A DNA stretch of 64,000 nt, from sequence record GU911519.1, one strand, 5' to 3'. Of this stretch, positions 11,890 to 48,755 are shown piece by piece; position 1 is the stretch's first letter; each line of letters opens with the position of its first letter. The DNA is from Acinetobacter phage Acj61. The position numbers and the translations under genes are program-made. The notes below the pieces were generated by a model. The model was not told where the DNA came from. It did no database searches and saw nothing but the letters and a program-made list of their open reading frames with translations.

Positions 11890-12209
11890 TAGTATAAGTC
11901 CTCTGAAAATAAAATACCTGGCGAACCAGTAACACGACGAATTTGATTTGCTGCTTTGGCAATTAACCAAGCTTCTTCACGATCAACAAAACGTCCTTCC
12001 GATGTGGTGAATCCTTGATGCCAGTGATTGTAGTCAGCATCTTCACCATAAATTTTATCAGCGACATTAAAAAATATATCGTCGCCATGACGTTTAGACA
12101 TAATCATCATATTGTCTTCAGGATTCAGTGCCGAAGCACTGATCACGATTTCCTGAAGTTGACGATGTCCAGTATGTTTATCAACACATAATAGAGCACC
12201 GATTGGCAT
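11889..12209 (-). CDS. Hypothetical protein
   Basis: 106-aa ORF translationally coupled to its neighbours. Confidence 0.45.
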   Translation of the reverse strand: MPIGALLCVDKHTGHRQLQEIVISASALNPEDNMMIMSKRHGDDIFFNVADKIYGEDADYNHWHQGFTTSEGRFVDREEAWLIAKAANQIRRVTGSPGILFSEDLY

Positions 12210-13867
12210 TAGATTTTCTCCCAGTCAAAAACTTGTACAGGATGAGCATTAGGGCGATACTTTTCACCAGTTTCTAAGTCTGTAAGAAGCCATTTGCCTG
12301 GATTCTTTGTCTTTAGAACTGATACGACGAGATCAGTATCATGTGAAACTTTACCATTACGAAGACGTCGACCAGCTTCATCAAGAGTCCGAGTCAATAG
12401 ATGCATCCCGTAATAGTATGCACTTACTGCTTTGATTGGATTGTTCTTGAAATATCCAGCTAATGCGATCCAAATAACTGCAACCCATAGACGATGGAAA
12501 ATGTTGAAGTTTGGATTGTAGAAGCTATCAAGTTCATTGATCTTGACTGTTGCTGATTGACCATCAATCGATAATCCACCCCACATAGGGTCAGAATTAA
12601 ATTCATCATAACCACTTAATGCATAAAGCACTTTAGCTTCATCATAAATTCGTGGACCAAATAATTTCGTTTTACCGAAGTAGCCACGTGGGTCAATCAA
12701 ACGAACACCTGAATCATCGAGCATCAAGTTACTAAAGTTCGGATCACCATGAATGATGTGGTAGTTATTGTGAATTGATTCATAGATCAAATGTGAATAT
12801 GCTTGTTGCAACATAGTCTTCAAACGACCAATACGAGTTCCATTGACAAAACGAATCTTGCCGAATGAATCAATGACACCTTGAATTTCTTTACAACGAG
12901 CTAAAACTTTATCGATGACTTCATATTGATAATCACGAGCTTTAGTTTCGTATGTGACTTTGCATCCAATTTCTGGGAATTTCAAAGTTTCAAGAATTTC
13001 ATCCAATAATTCTGGTTTGTAGACTTCGAACATTGGTTTGCCATGAATTCGTTCCATTTTGAAGTTGCATGCATTAGGAGTATTGCGTCGATCAATAATC
13101 TTTGGCAATGCTGGGCTATCAACATGGTCATACCATGACAGTTCTTCAGCTTGCAGTTCACGACCCTTTTCATTTAATGCAGCTTTGAAAACTACATCAC
13201 CAGAGAAAGTAACTGAGTTGAATTCACGATTCAATTCACGATGACGATGAGCATTTTGAAGTTTCGGTTTGTCACCTAAATCAGTGAGCCCAATCAATTC
13301 TTCTTGATAGAACGAATCTTTAACATCGAGCAATTCGACAAAGTCACGACCTTTGAAATATTCGTTGGCTTCATCTTTGTCATCGAAACGCTGAATGAAG
13401 AAATCATCGTACTGATAAATGCCAACTACGTTGCCGCCGGTTCCACCGGTTTCTTTGAGTTCATTGCCATCAAAGTTATAGCGGCATTCATCACCGAATG
13501 TGTAGATCGCATCATGGTCCCATGAGAATGCATCAAATTCTGGAATGACATCACACCAGTTGAAAACGACATTATGCCCATTGATTCGATTGGCAACTTG
13601 AGATATAGCATAGGCTGAACCATAAGCTTCGTCAACTGTTTCAACTGTGATGTTGAGTTTAAAGACTTTGGCATATTCGCGAACTTGTTTTGCAAACTTG
13701 CTATGAACGACAACAATAATTTCTTGAGCACCAGCTTGTTTATAGATCGAATATAAATGATGCAGAATTGTGTGTTGTTTGTAGTTCACCAAGACTTTAG
13801 GAATATGGTGTGTGATTGGATACAATCGAGTTGCAAGTCCAGCACCAAGAATAACTACTTTTTTCAT
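12209..13867 (-). CDS. Bifunctional sugar-1-phosphate nucleotidyltransferase (N-terminal) / APH-like anomeric sugar kinase (C-terminal)
   Basis: N-terminal ILGAGLATRL resembles the G-x-G-x-R NTase signature (RmlA/GlmU/MurU type). C-terminal HGDPNFSNLMLDD...IDPRG resembles the APH/choline-kinase/AmgK/NahK catalytic loop. Confidence 0.6.
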   Translation of the reverse strand: MKKVVILGAGLATRLYPITHHIPKVLVNYKQHTILHHLYSIYKQAGAQEIIVVVHSKFAKQVREYAKVFKLNITVETVDEAYGSAYAISQVANRINGHNVVFNWCDVIPEFDAFSWDHDAIYTFGDECRYNFDGNELKETGGTGGNVVGIYQYDDFFIQRFDDKDEANEYFKGRDFVELLDVKDSFYQEELIGLTDLGDKPKLQNAHRHRELNREFNSVTFSGDVVFKAALNEKGRELQAEELSWYDHVDSPALPKIIDRRNTPNACNFKMERIHGKPMFEVYKPELLDEILETLKFPEIGCKVTYETKARDYQYEVIDKVLARCKEIQGVIDSFGKIRFVNGTRIGRLKTMLQQAYSHLIYESIHNNYHIIHGDPNFSNLMLDDSGVRLIDPRGYFGKTKLFGPRIYDEAKVLYALSGYDEFNSDPMWGGLSIDGQSATVKINELDSFYNPNFNIFHRLWVAVIWIALAGYFKNNPIKAVSAYYYGMHLLTRTLDEAGRRLRNGKVSHDTDLVVSVLKTKNPGKWLLTDLETGEKYRPNAHPVQVFDWEKI

Positions 13868-13940: not shown

Positions 13941-14573
13941 TTATTTAGTTTCGGACTTTAACATAGCACCTAATGAACCGCCAGGATGATACGCATAGAA
14001 ATCTTCACGTTTAAAGCCAACATACTTCGACAGAATGACACCGATTGTATCGAGAAGAGCCAATAGAACTGTCGTACTGGTCGTCGGAGCCAAGTTATTG
14101 TCATCACATTCTACAATGCCAGGAATACCAAATTCGATGTCAAATGGAGCTTTCTGCTCATCAGTCAAATTCGGGTTACAATGTAACAAGATTTGAAGAA
14201 CATTTGGACGAATTTTATTGAGGTGCTGTGCCATGTACTGCATTTCGTCAGTTTTGCCTGAACGTGAAACGTGAATAACTACGTCGTCATGTGCAATGAA
14301 GCCAGCGTCACCGTGTGAATAATGACATGTGTTAAGGTACATTGATGGGATACCTAAGCTTGCGAAAGTTTCAGAAGCTTTAGCTGCCATGTTTGCATTT
14401 TTACCAACACCGGTGATCATGATACGACGACGATAATTTGATGCTGCAACTGGCTTTAACGTTTCAATCATGCTGTCATATTTGTCGCCGTTAAGAGCGA
14501 TCGCGGTATGAAGATGATCTAATGCGTCATTTTGAGCTTCAACAACTTGTAATGCTAAATCGATATTGTCCAT
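13941..14573 (-). CDS. SIS-domain sugar-phosphate isomerase (KdsD/GutQ-like arabinose-5-phosphate isomerase type, no CBS domains)
   Basis: ITGVGKNANMAAKASETFASLGIPS...HGDAGFI resembles KdsD GxGKSG...LASTGTP...HGDLG; 210 aa, single SIS domain. Confidence 0.6.
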   Translation of the reverse strand: MDNIDLALQVVEAQNDALDHLHTAIALNGDKYDSMIETLKPVAASNYRRRIMITGVGKNANMAAKASETFASLGIPSMYLNTCHYSHGDAGFIAHDDVVIHVSRSGKTDEMQYMAQHLNKIRPNVLQILLHCNPNLTDEQKAPFDIEFGIPGIVECDDNNLAPTTSTTVLLALLDTIGVILSKYVGFKREDFYAYHPGGSLGAMLKSETK

Positions 14574-14581
14574 ATTTACCT

Positions 14582-14854
14582 CTAAATACTAGAAACTGCT
14601 GCGAACTCAGCAATTGCCATAATGAATGTTACAAGAACGAACGCTACTGTGAAAATAAGAGTTCGAACTATTTGAGAACCGGTTAGCCCTTTCAATGCCA
14701 AGATGAATGCGATAATCCATCCGATAGCAGTCCAACCGAAGAAAATGTTGACCATCAAAACTGATACGTTGTTTGATGTCGTGTAGTAGGTCGCTGTGAT
14801 TCCTGGTAGCAAGTACAGGAAAAATAGTAACGCACAAACTAATAAGATACTCAT
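14582..14854 (-). CDS. Small membrane protein
   Basis: Three TM helices; start taken at the internal Met because the longer ORF overlaps the promoter cassette. Confidence 0.45.
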   Translation of the reverse strand: MSILLVCALLFFLYLLPGITATYYTTSNNVSVLMVNIFFGWTAIGWIIAFILALKGLTGSQIVRTLIFTVAFVLVTFIMAIAEFAAVSSI

Positions 14855-14875
14855 GATGATTTCCTCATCTAAATT

Positions 14876-14920
14876 ATTTGATAGGACCATTATAACACAG
14901 TCCTATCAAATCGTATACTG
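14876..14920 (-). promoter_or_regulatory. Early promoter cassette with inverted repeat
   Basis: TTGATAGGA-N-TATAAT-GGTCCTATCAAA on the minus strand; weaker -35. Confidence 0.4.
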
Positions 14921-14929
14921 CTTTATGAA

Positions 14930-16102
14930 TTAAAAACCGAAAATATCTTCAAGAGAAGCTTTCTTTTCACATTGAAGCCCAGCGGCTTCACACATACCTT
15001 CAAGTGGAGTCTTGAAAGATTTACCGAATAATGAGACATAATCGACTGAACGTAGAACGTTTTGACGAATCTCAGTTGGAATCTCTGTACCAGAAGGCCA
15101 TGCAATCAATTTGTCACCAAATGGGTTGGCAGGTACTAATGGCAGAACCATGACCTTTTCGCCTTCTTGGATGTCTGTTGCACCAGGGATTTCTTTGATT
15201 GCTCGTTTGTAAGTCAGAACTCCACGAATATGAGCAGGACACTTGAGACCAGGGAATCCATTGTCATCATATTTAGCAATGTTGTTTGCAGACGAAACTT
15301 TAGCGATCACTTTGTAATCAAGAGCTCGATATTCATTTTCAAACTCTTTGTAGTAAGTTTGAAGTGATTTCTCACCTTCTTGAAGCATTCGGCGAATAGA
15401 TTCAACTAATGCATCTTGAACTGCCTTAGGAGTAGATGATTGCTGAGTTTCCATTCCCATGATTTTCAAGTATGGTGTCTTGAATCGAGTACCTTCCATG
15501 TCCCATACACAAAGTGCATATCGTTTCTTAGCTTTCCAGAATCCACCGATACCTTCAGAACCAAGTGGTGGTGCAGAGATTGCTTCACGATCCATAAACA
15601 TCAAATGTTCGCGATTGTTCATGTACTCACACATTTCACGATATGCTGTATCAATCATTGGTTCCATTTTCTTGAGACCAAATTGATTCAAGAATTCGAT
15701 CAAATCATTTGTCTCTTTGAAACGTTCGATGCCAACTTTTTCAATTACTTTGTCAACACAGACATAGATCGAATCTGTATCACCAGCAATAACGAATGCA
15801 TGTCCTGTAGTTCCACAGACTTTATTCAAGTACTCGTTAACTTTTCGTTCAATCCATTGAATTGCCATTTGTCCAAACGTAGTAATTGCTGCAGCATTTC
15901 GAAGATCATAGAATCGGAAATAAATATTACCTAAAGCACCATACAACGAGTTAATGAGTAGCTTTCGGTTGATCTGATTCGTGTCACACAACATGATGAA
16001 ATCGGCACAATCTTGTTCAAGTTTTTCGATTTCTTCGTCAGACAGTGTTTGAAGATAAGCGATTTCTTCGTCAGTGAAATCACGTCCAAAGTCAAGGTTC
16101 AT
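14930..16102 (-). CDS. 43: DNA polymerase gp43, C-terminal fragment (43B): polymerase motifs B and C
   Basis: KLLINSLYGALG (motif B) and VIAGDTDSIYV (motif C) of family-B polymerases; 390 aa; own ATG start. Confidence 0.85.
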   Translation of the reverse strand: MNLDFGRDFTDEEIAYLQTLSDEEIEKLEQDCADFIMLCDTNQINRKLLINSLYGALGNIYFRFYDLRNAAAITTFGQMAIQWIERKVNEYLNKVCGTTGHAFVIAGDTDSIYVCVDKVIEKVGIERFKETNDLIEFLNQFGLKKMEPMIDTAYREMCEYMNNREHLMFMDREAISAPPLGSEGIGGFWKAKKRYALCVWDMEGTRFKTPYLKIMGMETQQSSTPKAVQDALVESIRRMLQEGEKSLQTYYKEFENEYRALDYKVIAKVSSANNIAKYDDNGFPGLKCPAHIRGVLTYKRAIKEIPGATDIQEGEKVMVLPLVPANPFGDKLIAWPSGTEIPTEIRQNVLRSVDYVSLFGKSFKTPLEGMCEAAGLQCEKKASLEDIFGF

Positions 16103-16144
16103 AAGAACTCCAATTAAGATGGGATAATGTAATTGTATATCAAA

Positions 16145-16318
16145 TTATCGATTCGCACCTGTCGAATCAACTGAGCCGTCACAGACTACACACGGGACTC
16201 TACCAGTTTCTCGTATGTAGTTCTGACGGATTTCTTCAGAAGTCATTGTAGGTGCATCGTAATGATACGTAGTGCAGCCGGTAAGAGTGATAATCAATAA
16301 GCTAATTGCGTACTTCAT
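16145..16318 (-). CDS. Small lipoprotein (57 aa)
   Basis: Unlisted ORF MKYAISLLIITLTGC... with lipobox. Confidence 0.35.
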   Translation of the reverse strand: MKYAISLLIITLTGCTTYHYDAPTMTSEEIRQNYIRETGRVPCVVCDGSVDSTGANR

Positions 16319-16484
16319 ATGTTATGTCTACCCGTGCTGTAAGAGATAATTCTTCTTCGCAATTTGAGCATTCGATGACGAATGAATCGCCATCATGTCT
16401 CCAGTTTTCAGTGTAGTCGGTAGAGTCGTTTTGGTGTCCACAGAATGGACACCCAACGTCATCACTCATACTTTTCACCTTCAA
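16302..16484 (-). CDS. Small zinc-ribbon protein
   Basis: CPFCGH...CSNCEE CxxC pairs; 60 aa. Confidence 0.45.
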   Translation of the reverse strand: MKVKSMSDDVGCPFCGHQNDSTDYTENWRHDGDSFVIECSNCEEELSLTARVDITYEVRN

Positions 16485-17019
16485 CTTTATTTTGAAGTTT
16501 GAAACGACGATTCAAGTCAACGTTAATGTTGAGATATCCTGACACGTTTCGTGAAATTTTGTCTGCAACACCTGCATCGTTTGCAAGTGAAACAAGTTCA
16601 GTCAAACGAATTTCAGCTTCATTGATCTCGCCTGTGTAGTCTGATGAGCTATAACGCTGAGAATAATTTGCATACGTGTAATCATGTACTGCAGATTGAA
16701 TTCGACGTTGTAATTGATCGATCATAGATGTGCCTCGTTGATAGTAGACTGGCTCTGGTTTCTTCCAATCATATGGGAATAATTTGTGGCACTTTGTGCA
16801 ACGTTTTTGAGGAGGATTCGATAGTAACATACGTCCTTCCTGAAATTCATGTTCGCATTCTGGAATACGAGGCTCGATACCTGAAACACATCCAGTTGTT
16901 AAGCTCAGAGGTGCTTGCACTGGCGGTGTAGCAACAAGTATTGAATGTTTCAATTCAGGTGCAGGTTGTCCATATACACCATTGAACCATTGTTCAGCTA
17001 AAGATTTCATACGAACCAC
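16462..17019 (-). CDS. Hypothetical protein with Cys/His cluster
   Basis: 185 aa; CEHEF...CTKCHK. Confidence 0.5.
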   Translation of the reverse strand: MVRMKSLAEQWFNGVYGQPAPELKHSILVATPPVQAPLSLTTGCVSGIEPRIPECEHEFQEGRMLLSNPPQKRCTKCHKLFPYDWKKPEPVYYQRGTSMIDQLQRRIQSAVHDYTYANYSQRYSSSDYTGEINEAEIRLTELVSLANDAGVADKISRNVSGYLNINVDLNRRFKLQNKVEGEKYE

Positions 17020-17483
17020 TCCGGTTGATTACGATTTTTCCATTCAGCAAGATTTCGTTTTTCAGTCATGTACAACTCGCGATACAATTGAACTGTGTCT
17101 GCGTTGTGTACTACACGTCCAGGCAAAACTGCAACGAATGGAGTCAATTCACCTTTTCCATCAGGAATTTTATCAAGAACATCGATAAACAAAGGAATCA
17201 AACGAGAACCTGCATGTACCTTACCATATCGATGAGTGTACTCATCAAGAAGAGCCATGTTAAGTTCGAGTAGATATTCAAAGTTTGCTTTAGATTCACG
17301 AACCCAAACTGCTGAAGGATGATTGACATGAGTTTTACGATACATATCTTCCGTAGCTAAGCCGAAAACATGGCATGCAGTCGAAAGAAGTTGATTGTAC
17401 TCAGTAATCATTTTAACAACGTGTTTGTTGCCATGTGCTTGAGCACATAGATTTATGTCGTGATCTAAAAGAAAGATGTTCAT
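17007..17483 (-). CDS. Hypothetical protein
   Basis: 158-aa ORF in the gp43 split island. Confidence 0.5.
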   Translation of the reverse strand: MNIFLLDHDINLCAQAHGNKHVVKMITEYNQLLSTACHVFGLATEDMYRKTHVNHPSAVWVRESKANFEYLLELNMALLDEYTHRYGKVHAGSRLIPLFIDVLDKIPDGKGELTPFVAVLPGRVVHNADTVQLYRELYMTEKRNLAEWKNRNQPEWFV

Positions 17484-17500
17484 GATAATTCCATCATTGT

Positions 17501-17542
17501 TTTGATAGGACCATTATAACATAGTCCTATCAAAAAGTAAAC
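17501..17542 (-). promoter_or_regulatory. PeSL-like early promoter cassette inside the gp43 split island
   Basis: GTTTAC-N18-TATAAT with flanking TTGATAGGA/TCCTATCAA. Confidence 0.5.
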
Positions 17543-17814
17543 TAAACTTTGGTCAAAAGTTTCTTGATTTCAGAAATTAATGCTTCAACTTCTTTCGCCA
17601 TTGTAGTCTGATGCTCAGGCTTGGTTGTAACTTCAGCAACACCTTTTATTCGATAGGCTGCAATAAGAATCTCTTCAATTTGAGGTTTTAATGCAGGTCC
17701 AACCCGAAAACTTTCGAATTTGAAATCATCGGTACTTATACGACGTGGTTCAGTGATAAGTGGATTGCGTTGTCCAATTCCGATACCAACGCCTGGAAAA
17801 TTACCGTCATGCAT
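17542..17814 (-). CDS. Hypothetical protein
   Basis: 90 aa. Confidence 0.45.
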   Translation of the reverse strand: MHDGNFPGVGIGIGQRNPLITEPRRISTDDFKFESFRVGPALKPQIEEILIAAYRIKGVAEVTTKPEHQTTMAKEVEALISEIKKLLTKV

Positions 17815-17824
17815 AGCATGTCTC

Positions 17825-18022
17825 CTATTTGATTTGCTCTAATTTATCTCGAAGCCCGTGAAGAGTACCAAGTGTACCTTCATCAGTGCAGAACAAGATT
17901 TCGCCTTCGATCATACCTAGACATTCACGAGCGATGAAATGTGCATCATCAAACTTGTCCTTCCAGTTGACCAACTTGTTAGCTTCATTTTCAGAAGCTA
18001 ACGTACCATTAATTGCTATCAT
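17825..18022 (-). CDS. Hypothetical small protein
   Basis: 65 aa. Confidence 0.4.
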   Translation of the reverse strand: MIAINGTLASENEANKLVNWKDKFDDAHFIARECLGMIEGEILFCTDEGTLGTLHGLRDKLEQIK

Positions 18023-18030
18023 TCTAGCTC

Positions 18031-18267
18031 CTAGAATAACCCGTCGATAGTTTCTTTACCAGCAGCGTGTGGATTCATGAACCACAACAAACCAGTGATA
18101 AAACCCGCGATGTACAGCAAAGGAAATGCAATTAACAAAGTCACAATGAATTTGTAGACAATCAATGCTTTCATAGCAGTTGATTCTTGGTCTTTGTATG
18201 CACCTTTAGCAGCTTTGTATAGATCCATTTTATACTCCAATTTCCCAGAAGCATTGTGCAATGGCAT
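18031..18267 (-). CDS. Small membrane protein
   Basis: 78 aa with a TM helix. Confidence 0.4.
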   Translation of the reverse strand: MPLHNASGKLEYKMDLYKAAKGAYKDQESTAMKALIVYKFIVTLLIAFPLLYIAGFITGLLWFMNPHAAGKETIDGLF

Positions 18268-18598
18268 GATTCAATTGCATGTCAGAATGAAGTGACTGCT
18301 GAATCAATTGAGCAACAAATGCAATCTCAGATTCTTTGTTGGCTCGAGCGTTGATAGTAACTTCTGCATTTCGTCGAGCCAGATCGATTGCAGAAAACCG
18401 AGCTTTGTAGCGAGGCTGTGTAATGGCTTTCAATAAACCAGGTTGCCATGAAATCGTGAAGCCAGATTTGATTTCAGCAATAATGAACATACTAGTCTCG
18501 CATGACTGCGTCACGCAGGCTTCGCCTTTCTCATTTTTGTAAATCATTTTTCTCGCTCCAAGATTTTCGTACAGCAAAATCGTAGTCTTTGCTAGCAT
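18230..18598 (-). CDS. Hypothetical protein
   Basis: 122 aa. Confidence 0.45.
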   Translation of the reverse strand: MLAKTTILLYENLGARKMIYKNEKGEACVTQSCETSMFIIAEIKSGFTISWQPGLLKAITQPRYKARFSAIDLARRNAEVTINARANKESEIAFVAQLIQQSLHSDMQLNHAIAQCFWEIGV

Positions 18599-18983
18599 TC
18601 AAGAAATGACCATGCATCTTATGGATTTCAATTGAGATAAGATGAAATACTTCATCATTCATCGGTTTGTGACGATACATATCTGACATACGTTCGATAG
18701 CAACAGTGATGTCGTCTAAGATTGATGCACCACCTGATGATTCAATTCGATCAATAACAACTGGGTCAACATTGACTGCAATAACATTAGCTTGTGGCTT
18801 ACACACAAGAGTGTAAGGATACAACGTAATGATTGTTGTGTCTTCCAATTTTTGCACTGATGGCAATGGATACACTTCAGATGGAGTGAATGACATCAAT
18901 CCATCAATAGGCATCTGTTCTAAACCAATCATATCTTCTACTCCCAAAGTAATCTGAAGTGACAGAACTATTATAATGAACAT
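18531..18983 (-). CDS. Hypothetical protein
   Basis: 150 aa. Confidence 0.45.
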   Translation of the reverse strand: MFIIIVLSLQITLGVEDMIGLEQMPIDGLMSFTPSEVYPLPSVQKLEDTTIITLYPYTLVCKPQANVIAVNVDPVVIDRIESSGGASILDDITVAIERMSDMYRHKPMNDEVFHLISIEIHKMHGHFLNASKDYDFAVRKSWSEKNDLQK

Positions 18984-19223
18984 TTTATACTATTCAGGCT
19001 TATAGCACTCTTCCGTTGTAAATATTTTTGCCAACTTCAGGAGGATAACTTTTGAACTGTTTACGAGTCACCACATCTTAAACACTTTGTGTAACGCATA
19101 GAGAATTTGTATGCATTGCTTTGAGTTAGTCCACCGCCTTTAACTCGTTCGGTCCATTGGTCCTAGTGATGAAAGATTTCTTCATGTTCGACTGTGTGTT
19201 TGCACATAAGTTGCTGAAGTATT

Positions 19224-19658
19224 TTAAACATTGAACGGACTCACTACAGGTAAATTGATTGTGTTACCATACATACGACGAGAACCTTGATAACATCCGG
19301 ATAACGAGTTTGCCATAATTGTATAAAATGGGCGAAGAGCAGGTTTTTGAGATTCAACTTCTACTGAAAGCCCGTATTCAGTCATGAGTTTGTTATACAT
19401 TTGATCATGAACCATCAAATTATGTTCAAGACGTTCAAGGATTGACATTGTTACAGGAATGAATTGCTCGAGAACTGAAGGATCGATTGCAACTGGTTTA
19501 GGGTCCCAAAAACCACCAAGTGTACATTTAGAAGAAGATCCGAACACCTCATTAAACTGCTTGTCAATTGCATCAGAGATAATAGTATCCATCATATTCA
19601 CAGTTAGATTATCCTGTGTTAAATCCTGAATGGCCTGTGTTAAAGTAGTTTGTTTCAT
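19224..19658 (-). CDS. Hypothetical protein
   Basis: 144 aa. Confidence 0.5.
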   Translation of the reverse strand: MKQTTLTQAIQDLTQDNLTVNMMDTIISDAIDKQFNEVFGSSSKCTLGGFWDPKPVAIDPSVLEQFIPVTMSILERLEHNLMVHDQMYNKLMTEYGLSVEVESQKPALRPFYTIMANSLSGCYQGSRRMYGNTINLPVVSPFNV

Positions 19659-19766
19659 AATTTAATACTCATTAGATGATAAGACTATAATAACAAATCA
19701 TATAGCAAAAGTAAACTATTAGATGCCACAAAAGGAGCATAAAGCTCCTATGTGATTACATTTTGA

Positions 19767-20036
19767 TCAGAACAATGTATCTAACTCTACTGCAATAGGC
19801 AGAAGTTCGTTAGTCAATGCTTTGATATTGTCACCTGTGATAGGTAATCCAATGTACTTGTGAGTGATCTGCTCCATATCTGCGATACGTTGCTTGTTCA
19901 TGTCTCGATCACGTGGGTCAACGATCAAACGAATATTTTCTTTAGCGAACTCAATAGCTACAATGCCAAGAGTAATTTTTGCATCTAAAGAACGAGTTGC
20001 ACGAGTATCAATTTTAGGTTTGAATGTGTTTTTCAT
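19767..20036 (-). CDS. Hypothetical protein
   Basis: 89 aa. Confidence 0.45.
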   Translation of the reverse strand: MKNTFKPKIDTRATRSLDAKITLGIVAIEFAKENIRLIVDPRDRDMNKQRIADMEQITHKYIGLPITGDNIKALTNELLPIAVELDTLF

Positions 20037-20089
20037 ATCATAACTCCGGTTTGTAAGATCATTATACTACATGTTAAGAAGAAGCACAA

Positions 20090-21598
20090 TTACTTGCGCA
20101 ACTTCTTGAGGATTTCTAAGTTTCGTTTACCAGGCAACATCTTGTTTTTCCATTCTTTACGTTGGAAGAACACTTTGGTGATTTCTTCAGGAATCACACC
20201 TTGGACATCTTTGGTGTACATCATGCCGTTTGGTGAACAACTGTACACTTCTGAAGGACGTGGAGCAGTTTTGTTGATGTACTCAGCCAATGGACTTAAT
20301 GCGAATGTACCTGCAATAGTTTCTGGGCTGATATTCACTTGACGAATGATCGATGGATACAATGATGTCAAGTCAAATGACATAACATATTTGTAAGCAC
20401 CTGGTTTTGGTTCCTTAACGTATGCACCTGGATAACCTTGACGAATATGAGATTTGCCTTCTGGTAAGATCGTGTGCTTTGATTTCAATGAGTTGAATAA
20501 AATCGCATCCCAAGTTTTGATTGGAGACATGACTGATCCGATTGCCATTTTAGCATAGTAACCCATTGAAAGTGATAGGTTAATGAATCCACGTTTCACA
20601 TCAATCGCTTGTACAGATTCAACGTCCATGATGTTGTACGAAATGTAACGTTGGTGATTTCGTTCACGTAACTTGTTAATTGGACCATCATATTCCAACT
20701 TACCAACACCGGTTTCATATTTCGCAATGAAGTCAAGTTTATAAGTCGGTTGGTTTGTGAATGCGAACTTTTTGTATAAGTCCATGTAGTCAAGAATCGT
20801 GACACCTACGATATTGAAGATTTCTTTGTCACCATACATGTTAGTGATGACTTTAGAAGTTACTTTACCGAATGGACTCATTCGATTGACTGCACTGTTA
20901 CCAAGAACTCGTTTCAAACGATTGAGCACGTATGGAATATCGAATCCTTCAACGTTCCAACCTGTGAAAATTACTGGTCGTTTAGTTTCCCAAAGATTGA
21001 CGTATTCCATCAATAATTCTTTTTCAGAATCAAATGGCATGTACACGACTTTGTCTAAAAGATTTTGAGGTACTTCATCACCACCTTCAGAATCTGGGCG
21101 AGCTGCAAGTTTGATGTCCCATTTCGAAACAGAACCATAAACCGAATTCAACAAGTCAAAGACATAGTACTTGTCATCGATTGAATCATAGTGAGTGATC
21201 GCATCGATTTCATACATCGCTTCAGCTGGATTCGGGAACTCTGCTGCAGTCACCTCAATGTCCATATTGGCAACACGAACATATTTTCGATTGTACTCAA
21301 TCACATCTTTGTATGTGTCAGCAATATATGCTAATTTGAAGTCATCCATACCAAGAACATCGACGATACCACGAGTTTTCTGCATCCAATCTTTGGCATC
21401 TTTGATGCATGTGAATCGTTTAGGGAGACATGGCTTACCATAAATGTCTTTGTACTTTGATTCAACGTGATCTTGTGCATGAATGAATAATGTCGGTTCA
21501 TATGGCACATAACGAATAACTTCTTCACCAAATTCATTGATGTATCGTTCACAAATGTTGTTACCAATCTGTTCGACTGCTAAATAAAAAGGCTTCAT
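20090..21598 (-). CDS. 43: DNA polymerase gp43, N-terminal fragment (43A): 3'-5' exonuclease domain plus motif A
   Basis: VANMDIEVT (Exo I D-x-E) and SFDLTSLYPSII (motif A); 502 aa ending at a stop codon. Sum with 43B is 892 aa against T4 gp43 898 aa. Confidence 0.85.
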   Translation of the reverse strand: MKPFYLAVEQIGNNICERYINEFGEEVIRYVPYEPTLFIHAQDHVESKYKDIYGKPCLPKRFTCIKDAKDWMQKTRGIVDVLGMDDFKLAYIADTYKDVIEYNRKYVRVANMDIEVTAAEFPNPAEAMYEIDAITHYDSIDDKYYVFDLLNSVYGSVSKWDIKLAARPDSEGGDEVPQNLLDKVVYMPFDSEKELLMEYVNLWETKRPVIFTGWNVEGFDIPYVLNRLKRVLGNSAVNRMSPFGKVTSKVITNMYGDKEIFNIVGVTILDYMDLYKKFAFTNQPTYKLDFIAKYETGVGKLEYDGPINKLRERNHQRYISYNIMDVESVQAIDVKRGFINLSLSMGYYAKMAIGSVMSPIKTWDAILFNSLKSKHTILPEGKSHIRQGYPGAYVKEPKPGAYKYVMSFDLTSLYPSIIRQVNISPETIAGTFALSPLAEYINKTAPRPSEVYSCSPNGMMYTKDVQGVIPEEITKVFFQRKEWKNKMLPGKRNLEILKKLRK

Positions 21599-21642
21599 AA
21601 ACTACTCCATAATTATAGGGAAATTGTATACCAAAAAAATTT

Positions 21643-21662
21643 AAAGCGGGTTTCCCCGCTTT
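21643..21662. terminator. Bidirectional hairpin terminator upstream of gene 43
   Basis: AAAGCGGG-TTTCC-CCGCTTT, flanked by A-run and T-run. Confidence 0.5.
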
Positions 21663-21665
21663 CTT

Positions 21666-21905
21666 TTAATTGGTTTGAACATCGTTTGCGATTGCTCGTT
21701 TGCTCATTTCTTCTCGAGGAATCCAGCCTTTTTCTGTTTTGACATAACATCCTGAAACTATGCTATATCGAGTTTGCCGATCAGTCATTGATTCGTAACT
21801 ATTGCATTGCATGAATCCAGAAACAGTGTTCCATCCAGCGATTAAGATTGCAATAACGACTACTAAAATGATTGTGGCCCATAATTCAAATGCGGCGTTT
21901 GACAT
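21666..21905 (-). CDS. Small membrane protein
   Basis: 79 aa with an N-terminal TM helix. Confidence 0.45.
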   Translation of the reverse strand: MSNAAFELWATIILVVVIAILIAGWNTVSGFMQCNSYESMTDRQTRYSIVSGCYVKTEKGWIPREEMSKRAIANDVQTN

Positions 21906-21906
21906 A

Positions 21907-22263
21907 TTAGTTTCCTACAGTGTACTTTGATTTAAGTGTCCATTCAGACTTTTGACTGAACTTAATAACTCGGAAATTGTTAGAGATTTCTACATCTCCG
22001 AGGTCAGTTTTGATAAGACCCCATGCTTCAAGAGTCTTAGCAATTGATTTGGTACGAAGCAGATCATCTTCAGACATGTTGACAGCTTTGCCATCTAATT
22101 TCATCATGTCTTTAAAATGAGCAATGAAATATTTTCCTTGCTTTTGCAAGATATGGCAAGACTGGTACAAGACTTTGTCTTTATTGTTTGCGATACCCAT
22201 GCGAGTAAGAGTTTCTTTAACTTTTAGGAAGTCGTCTGGTGTGTTCAAAATAATGTTAATCAT
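21907..22263 (-). CDS. regA: Translational repressor RegA
   Basis: 118 aa (T4 RegA 122 aa); synteny 62-regA-43. Confidence 0.65.
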   Translation of the reverse strand: MINIILNTPDDFLKVKETLTRMGIANNKDKVLYQSCHILQKQGKYFIAHFKDMMKLDGKAVNMSEDDLLRTKSIAKTLEAWGLIKTDLGDVEISNNFRVIKFSQKSEWTLKSKYTVGN

Positions 22264-48410: not shown

Positions 48411-48481
48411 TTCTGGCACGAGTAATCGAAACTCGGTGACTGGAGTACAAAACCAGCATAATACCACTATATGATGCCAGA
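48411..48481 (-). tRNA. tRNA-Thr (TGT), no encoded CCA; flanked by a 12-13-bp extended inverted repeat
   Basis: Acceptor TCTGGCA/TGCCAGA; D arm CATA-TAGTGGTAT-TATG; anticodon loop TTTGTAC; T arm CGAGT-TTCGATT-ACTCG. The 3' trailer is CTT instead of CCA. Confidence 0.55.
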
Positions 48482-48594
48482 ACTTTAAGAACTATGTTGT
48501 TTAGTTGATATAGACAGTATATCATACTTTTCCTAACAGCATATTGATTTGCTGTTGGGGCGTGTGTTTCTATAATTATATTTATACAACAATC

Positions 48595-48670
48595 TGGAGG
48601 CGTCAACAGGACTCGAACCTGCATCGACGCGGATTTGCAATCCGCCGTATAACCATTCTACCACAACGCC
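48595..48670 (-). tRNA. tRNA-Cys (GCA)
   Basis: Anticodon arm GCGGA-TTGCAAA-TCCGC; T arm GCAGG-TTCGAGT-CCTGT; CCA encoded. Confidence 0.7.
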
Positions 48671-48678
48671 TTTAATTT

Positions 48679-48755
48679 TGGAGCCCCGCATGAGATTCGA
48701 ACTCATATAAGTCGCAATAGAACTACGATGCCTAATCCAACTCGGCCAGCGAGAC
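48679..48755 (-). tRNA. tRNA-Arg (TCT)
   Basis: Acceptor GTCTCGC/GCGGGGC with two G-U pairs; anticodon loop GTTCTAT; T arm ATGAG-TTCGAAT-CTCAT; CCA encoded. Confidence 0.6.

Follow-up and report, generated by a model that had tools for sequence, protein, structure and literature searches.

In Acinetobacter phage Acj61, the gene for the replicative DNA polymerase gp43 occupies two separate open reading frames (ORFs), 43A and 43B, and we consider it very probable that together they constitute a natural bicistronic form of this T4-family enzyme. The locus lies within the 64,000-nucleotide (nt) stretch of the Acj61 genome analyzed here (GU911519), hereafter the window, in which all positions are given. 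The split is real but already known: it is annotated in this very genome, which was deposited in 2010. Because the names 'gp43A split DNA polymerase' (ADG36062.1) and 'gp43B split DNA polymerase' (ADG36051.1) stand in GenBank for Acj61, and the window's proteins are residue-for-residue identical to these entries, the feature is not new, and the polymerase genes show no difference from the deposited annotation. To that annotation we add a pseudogene at 19003-19231, an ORF of 57 amino acids (aa), a longer possible start for p095, and a set of promoter, terminator and leader features. Split gp43 as a class is likewise described, and has been tested biochemically in related phages; a nucleotide search of a phage collection that does not include Acj61's own accessions found best matches of about 73% among Acinetobacter phages, many of them labelled 'split DNA polymerase'.

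20090-21598, minus strand: gene 43A (Acj61p097), 502 aa, ATG start, TAA stop; identical to ADG36062.1
14930-16102, minus strand: gene 43B (Acj61p086), 390 aa, own ATG; identical to ADG36051.1

Two cistrons and a break in the fingers

The original prediction, a reading of the nucleotide sequence, placed the exonuclease domain and polymerase motif A in a 502-aa ORF ending at a genuine stop, and motifs B and C in a 390-aa ORF with its own ATG. Both assignments hold. In the ORF list and its translations, DIE and SLYPS fall in the longer frame, and KLLINSLYGALG and GDTDS in the shorter. Pfam recognizes DNA_pol_B_exo1 in 43A, followed by DNA_pol_B at profile positions 17-139, and picks up DNA_pol_B again in 43B at profile positions 147-237. 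Searched against solved structures, 43A residues 1-500 align with T4 gp43 1-499 (expect value, E, 3e-230), 43B residues 9-389 with T4 gp43 519-898, and 43B residues 2-390 with RB69 515-903. The two chains sum to 892 aa, compared with 898 aa for T4 gp43, a correspondence that had been predicted and that both lengths and alignment confirm.

By these matches, the N-terminal and 3'-5' exonuclease domains belong to 43A, along with motif A (SLYPS) in the first part of the palm and the first of the two finger helices; 43B holds the other finger helix with motif B, the remaining palm segment with motif C (GDTDS), the thumb and the C-terminal tail. In the RB69 structure of Wang et al. (1997), the fingers are said to span residues 469-572 and the palm residues 383-468 and 573-729, and it is from these limits that finger helices, palm parts and thumb have been assigned to one half or the other. 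Each half has the signals of an independent cistron. A GGAG Shine–Dalgarno (SD) sequence lies 6-7 nt 5' of both ATGs (6 nt for 43B), translation of 43A ends at a true stop, the TAA after codon 502, and 43B has its own start codon. The gap that separates them, 16103-20089, comprises 3,987 nt full of same-strand ORFs. The first cistron thus holds the exonuclease and motif A, and the second motifs B and C with the thumb, an arrangement shared with the recognized members 133, Acj9 and Ac42 and identical in the deposited member.

The cut itself was located in a MAFFT alignment in which the joined halves of Acj61, Stupor, Acj9, Ac42 and 133 were set beside T4 gp43 and five monocistronic relatives. 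It falls in the loop at the finger tip between the two finger helices (T4 residues ~501-510), where some ten residues of the loop are absent. The break column is identical in all five Acinetobacter lineages, across which 43A ends in '...KKLxK' and 43B begins with 'MxLDF...'. Alignment to T4 and RB69 thereby bears out the earlier expectation of a clean break in the fingers between motifs A and B.

All Acinetobacter loci compared are split, and 18 other relatives are contiguous. Phages 133, Acj9, Ac42 and ZZ1, together with the Twarogvirinae of A. baumannii (Stupor, Lazarus, KARL-1), share with Acj61 the same break column, the same orientation, several genes of the intervening island, and a homolog of i01, the island gene that adjoins 43A. 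Subunit lengths are alike as well, at 502/390 aa in Acj61, 502/391 aa in Ac42 and 506/392 aa in 133. Two more Acinetobacter-type loci in IMG/VR are split by 1.9-2.0 kb; a scan of IMG/VR with 43B found no close relatives of Acj61, the best match being 72% identical.

Where the lineages differ is in the size of the island. The gap is 2,007 nt with six annotated genes in Stupor, 2,417 nt with six in Acj9, 2,508 nt with seven in Ac42, and 2,917 nt with eight in 133. Measured from the start of i01 to that of 43B, the spacing in ~45 Acinetobacter phage records groups into classes of ~1.69, 1.84, 1.91, 2.06, 2.30, 2.44 and 2.9 kb; the corresponding distance in Acj61, 3.93 kb, is the largest sampled by about 1 kb. 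Relatives' islands of 1.7-2.9 kb and 6-8 genes thus stand against 3,987 nt and 10-11 genes in Acj61. The original prediction had regarded an island of this size and content as unusual and had proposed checking for its presence or absence in related genomes. That comparison shows islands, albeit smaller ones, throughout the split Acinetobacter phages, and the claim of unusualness does not survive it: the same break occurs in every T4-like Acinetobacter phage examined, i01, i04, i05, i08 and i10 are syntenic, and gaps of up to 3 kb have been reported (PMC3061061). The shared break, taken with the syntenic island genes, indicates that the split and the core of the island are ancient and the cargo variable. 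The Acj61 island sits at the upper end of a common, ancient arrangement, and the difference is one of degree only.

Other split polymerases offer instructive parallels. As summarized in PMC2988022 and PMC3061061 from the work of Petrov et al. (2006 and 2010), Aeromonas phages 44RR, 31, 25 and 65 likewise encode a bicistronic gp43 cut in the finger-tip region. By those summaries, what separates the halves is not a multi-gene island but either a gene for a seg-type homing endonuclease or a short untranslated spacer that can be as small as 2 bp, and break positions vary within the finger tip. Naturally occurring gp43 splits span gaps from 2 bp in an Aeromonas phage to 3 kb in an Acinetobacter phage, with 133 among the split forms (PMC3061061), and the 43A and 43B proteins of phage 25 co-purify and polymerize DNA (PMC2988022). 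Pfu polymerase engineered with a finger-tip split keeps full activity; like gp43 of Acj61 it is cut in the fingers near the tip, but its two cistrons are artificial, with overlapping stop and start codons and no genes between them (PMC3061061). A more distant case is the split family B polymerase (PolB) of PhiKZ, whose DNAP-N and DNAP-C form a stable, interdigitated 1:1 heterodimer with motifs A and C on separate chains (PMC13648687). In this distribution of motifs over two polypeptides, PhiKZ and the Methanothermobacter PolB (PMC13648687; for the latter, Kelman 1999 as cited in PMC3061061) resemble Acj61. Both belong to unrelated lineages, however, and are split in the palm (in PhiKZ at a palm insertion) with the two genes unlinked, whereas Acj61 is split at the finger tip.

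Taken together, these observations favor a model in which ancestral gene 43 would have been cut once, at the finger-tip loop, in the ancestor of the T4-like Acinetobacter phages. Each half would be translated from its own SD sequence and ATG, and the two polypeptides would join non-covalently so that, judging by homology, both chains contribute to the polymerase active site, palm and fingers, with 43B supplying the clamp-binding tail. The split would imply a two-subunit polymerase, as the original prediction proposed, and we infer subunit assembly and activity from other split PolBs. Two points weigh against this interpretation: a search of the accessible literature found neither direct biochemical evidence nor transcript data on Acj61, and the argument that its 43A and 43B chains assemble is one from homology.

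Alternative explanations

Might an intact gene 43 have been broken recently, in Acj61 specifically, by an insertion such as a homing endonuclease could bring about? We regard this as very unlikely. Five diverged lineages, with polymerases 61-74% identical to that of the window, share the same break, i01 is kept beside 43A in all five, and the cargo specific to Acj61 (i02, i03, i06, i07 and most of i09) makes up only part of the island. It is true that the Acj61 island extends ~1 kb beyond any other sampled, and that homing endonucleases split other genes of the T4 family, as with mobE in Aeh1 nrdA, mobA in T4 gene 60, and seg43 by the phage 25 split (PMC2988022). Yet no GIY-YIG, HNH or LAGLIDADG domain was detected in any island ORF by Pfam, PHROGs or NCBIfam, and the structural model of i01 has no endonuclease fold match. 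The hallmark of the recognized endonuclease-associated splits (seg43 in phage 25, mobE in Aeh1 nrdA, mobA at T4 gene 39/60) is accordingly missing from the Acj61 locus.

It is scarcely credible that the halves are rejoined into a single chain, whether by a group I intron or trans-splicing, by a split intein, or by translational bypassing. T4 gene 60 furnishes an example of bypassing, but we know of no precedent for a bypass of 3,987 nt. The gap moreover holds 10 translated-looking genes with SD sequences, two promoters and a terminator-like hairpin. For a split intein, the alignments are telling: 43A aligns up to residue 500 of 502 and 43B from residue 1-2, so the broken ends carry no surplus residues that could belong to intein halves. 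Neither a Hint nor an intein domain turned up in Pfam scans of the locus ORFs. In phage 25, gene 43 does contain a group I intron (PMC2993671), but an Rfam search of 14500-22000 on both strands at E<=1 gave no family match, and so no intron structure was found in Acj61. The original prediction had excluded an intein, an intron and a homing endonuclease, and rightly so by these results: a stop follows 43A, several separate ORFs occupy the gap, Pfam detects no intein domain, and neither Rfam at E<=1 nor the Pfam, PHROGs and NCBIfam scans of the island ORFs yielded an intron or an endonuclease. Features diagnostic of intein-bearing PolBs, split inteins, or group I introns of the kind found in phage 25 g43B and JSE were not seen at this locus.

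An artefact, that is, a misjoin or frameshift in a gene 43 that is truly contiguous, deserves consideration given that the Acj61 genome dates from 2010 and that the authors of the ZZ1 genome reported that errors in their first assembly had produced spurious split genes (PMC4177764). The exact 43B protein is, however, encoded on four contigs from four unrelated sequencing runs, and these four assemblies, 99.4-99.7% identical, reproduce the 43B junction. One of them, the 23-kb metagenome contig L028, covers 43A, an island of 3,994 nt and 43B at 99.4% identity to the window. Dozens of independently sequenced phages show the same architecture and break point, and what separates the halves is no frameshift but 4 kb of coding DNA. 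An assembly artefact is effectively refuted, and its probability is close to nil.

Equally negligible is the chance that the halves are decaying fragments of a pseudogene and that another polymerase replicates the genome. Decay does occur nearby, in the island gene at 19003-19231, but the exonuclease and polymerase motifs are all intact, both halves are ~70% identical to functional homologs along their whole length, and an SD sequence and ATG are kept for each half in every lineage. Natural variation makes the same point. Between the window and L028, 43A and 43B differ at nine codons, with nine synonymous and no nonsynonymous changes, compared with eight synonymous and eight nonsynonymous among the 16 codons that differ in the island ORFs. 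Both halves are under strict purifying selection.

The island and its genes

The starts of the island genes, numbered below from the 43A side, were refined by SD sequences, by an independent gene caller and by exact matches to deposited proteins.

19767-20036, minus strand: i01 (Acj61p096), 89 aa, orphan family; phrog_21960, E 6e-44
19224-19658, minus strand: i02 (Acj61p095), 144 aa, without family match; only in Acj61-type genomes
19003-19231, minus strand: pseudogene, decayed 78-aa ORF between i02 and i03
18531-18932, minus strand: i03 (Acj61p094), 133 aa, SD GGGAG; identical to ADG36059.1
18230-18547, minus strand: i04 (Acj61p093), 105 aa; phrog_26620, E 9e-54; identical to ADG36058.1
18031-18228, minus strand: i05 (Acj61p092), 65 aa, hydrophobic; phrog_24434, E 3e-36; identical to ADG36057.1
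17825-18022, minus strand: i06 (Acj61p091), 65 aa, SD AGGAG; exact match to Acj61 protein
17542-17814, minus strand: i07 (Acj61p090), 90 aa, SD AGGAG; identical to ADG36055.1
17007-17483, minus strand: i08 (Acj61p089), 158 aa; phrog_624 'DNA binding protein' (Xp15-like), E 9e-58
16462-17010, minus strand: i09 (Acj61p088), 182 aa; identical to ADG36053.1
16302-16469, minus strand: i10 (Acj61p087), 55 aa, zinc ribbon; phrog_6504, E 9e-12; identical to ADG36052.1
16145-16318, minus strand: i11, 57 aa, doubtful, without SD; not in the Acj61 GenBank annotation

The original prediction counted 11 small same-strand ORFs in the gap. Ten of these stand, supported by SD sequences and by exact matches to Acj61p087-p096; the eleventh, at 16145-16318, is doubtful, and one pseudogene had been missed. 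The doubtful ORF, i11, has a lipoprotein-like N-terminus with LTGC (MKYAISLLIITLTGC), shares 17 nt with the end of i10, lacks an NCBI accession, and is called in two metagenome records only. Several island genes start later than the longest ORF would suggest, as for i03, where the mechanical ORF of 150 aa begins too early. The start of i02 is disputed between 122 aa in GenBank and 144 aa in metagenome gene calls and the longest ORF, neither start having a good SD sequence. At 19003-19231, the pseudogene has a 5-nt deletion as well as a stop codon in frame, so that tblastn returns two frames and a stop; its cysteine-containing 78-aa ORF is intact at 6865-7101 of L028. Over this stretch, 20 of 234 columns (8.5%) differ from L028, as against ~0.3% in the flanks and elsewhere.

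Function is assigned to few of these genes. PHROGs names one only for i08 ('DNA binding protein'), and sequence searches of the PDB with i08 and i09 found no match. Pfam, NCBIfam and PADLOC gave no assignment for the island proteins besides weak zinc-ribbon and Lar-like Pfam matches for i10, which lie below the cut-offs. Several families nonetheless recur in the islands of other phages: i04 has homologs in those of Stupor and Acj9 and in 64 phage records overall, i05 is syntenic in Stupor and Acj9, i10 has a homolog in the Stupor island, and i08 is 70% identical to Acj9p096 and 65% to Ac42p092, each within its own phage's island. By local tblastn, i02, i03, i06, i07 and i11 have no match in relatives' islands and occur in Acj61-type genomes only; i09 shows weak similarity only, to a Stupor gene outside the Stupor island. 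Alongside the conserved i01, the island holds a few small genes of wide distribution and cargo that differs between lineages, being acquired, lost or in decay; the DNA between the halves behaves like a T4 'hyperplastic' early region with its own early promoters.

Only i01 adjoins 43A in every split Acinetobacter lineage compared. Because it is always attached to 43A, i01 was examined as a possible relic of the element that split the gene. Its homologs lie directly after 43A at 58% identity in Stupor, 42% in Acj9, 39% in Ac42 and, weakly, 37% over 51 aa in 133 (local tblastn), and occur in 66 phage records. An exhaustive HMMER search of 1.84 billion proteins placed the family at 26 cluster representatives, and a word-indexed homolog search gave three near-identical relatives only; a HMMER match to P0086, a SPRY-domain protein, proved to be a spurious coiled-coil match. 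The AlphaFold (AF2) model, with a predicted local distance difference test (pLDDT) score of 79, has a small sheet and three helices. Compared with the PDB, it yielded no significant fold match (best E 0.63) and no endonuclease-like fold. Neither sequence nor fold searches lend support to i01 as a homing-endonuclease relic or as a known polymerase accessory factor.

One record, OP946502.1 (vB_AbaM_DLP2), has an i01 homolog at 48471-48719 on the minus strand and a 43B N-terminus at 18291-18431 on the plus strand, ~30 kb apart. This layout is unlike that of all other records, and may reflect a rearrangement or an assembly problem.

Expression signals and neighboring genes

The locus carries the following candidate signals:

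21643-21662, minus strand: strong terminator-like hairpin with T-run, directly upstream of the 43A leader
21622-21635, minus strand: leader motif TTTGGTATACAATT, 23 nt upstream of the 43A ATG
19733-19749, minus strand: terminator-like hairpin AGGAGC-tttat-GCTCCT with T-rich tail, just 3' of i01
19687-19716, minus strand: T4-early-type promoter, GTTTACT, 17-nt spacer, TGTTATTAT; upstream of i02
17513-17542, minus strand: T4-early-type promoter, GTTTACT, 17-nt spacer, TGTTATAAT; upstream of i08
16131-16144, minus strand: leader motif TTTGATATACAATT, 28 nt upstream of the 43B ATG

Fifteen sites in the window fit the pattern GTTTAC-N15-19-TAWWAT, against an expectation of 0.16, and every one of them is on the coding strand. 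They lie between 2507 and 44639, all on the minus strand, often in the form GTTTACTTTTGATAGGA...TGnTATAAT. Such over-representation, confined to one strand, marks these sites as a true class of promoters akin to the early promoters of T4. Two members fall within the island. The original prediction had noted at least one PeSL-type early promoter, at 17501-17542; the site at 17513-17542 does match the class, but must be joined by a second at 19687-19716. The hairpin at 19733-19749, read from the sequence and under the T-run threshold of our terminator scan, would close a 43A-i01 transcription unit. From these signals the genes would fall into units of 43A-i01, i02-i07, and i08-i10 (perhaps with i11), the last reading on into 43B. 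Before 43A, a hairpin, a -10 element and an SD sequence follow in the same order in relatives.

The leaders of the two halves have features in common. A 14-mer, TTTGRTATACAATT, has exactly two copies in the window, one before each polymerase half, and is possibly an extended -10 element. It also precedes 43A in Acj9, and 133 has TTTGATATAAT upstream of 43B. In Acj61 (21605-21615 and 16112-16120, minus strand), Stupor, Acj9 and Ac42, both halves have a CCC(T/A) box 4-12 nt 5' of the SD sequence; 133 does not, and within the window only 8 of 97 crude gene starts have one. A MotA box was considered for the leaders and set aside as too weak, CGCTTTA lying 13 nt before TACAAT at 43A, with only TGC common to 43B.

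What the split phages appear to have lost is the operator of the T4 gene. The T4-type gp43 operator hairpin (GAC-uAAUAACUCG-GUC UAUAAAC AAGGA) is kept upstream of gene 43 in 18 of 18 monocistronic relatives (L009-L026), and was not found before either half in the split phages; in Acj61 the stretch compared upstream of 43A was 21599-21660. Nor was a comparable hairpin seen when the two leaders were inspected by eye. The leaders thus hint that the two subunits may be regulated in another, possibly coordinated, manner. A more specific proposal, which we advance tentatively and think rather improbable, is that the autogenous T4 operator was replaced in split phages by an element duplicated before both halves, for which TTTGRTATACAATT and the CCC(T/A) box are candidates, so matching the amounts of the subunits; i01, if co-transcribed with 43A, might join in control or in assembly.

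Directly downstream of 43B, at 14582-14890 on the minus strand, is a gene for a 102-aa protein of the Imm superinfection-immunity family, with imm positioned as in T4 and 133. Beyond it lie, both on the minus strand, a SIS-domain sugar isomerase at 13941-14573, annotated in Acj9 as arabinose-5-phosphate isomerase, and a 552-aa nucleotidyl-transferase at 12209-13867. Acj61 homologs of RB69 genes proposed for arabinosyl-hydroxymethylcytosine (arabinosyl-hmC) modification of DNA are discussed in PMC6024577, and on the strength of these homologs Acj61 may arabinosylate its own DNA.

The bicistronic gp43 of Acj61 provides a natural example of a replicative PolB that tolerates a chain break at the finger tip. 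Once fixed, such a break offers accessory early genes a stable landing zone, ranging from 1.7 to 4 kb in Acinetobacter phages. The promoter-class sites give a map of early transcription units in Acj61, and the shared leader motif, together with loss of the T4-type operator, makes the balance of subunit expression directly testable.

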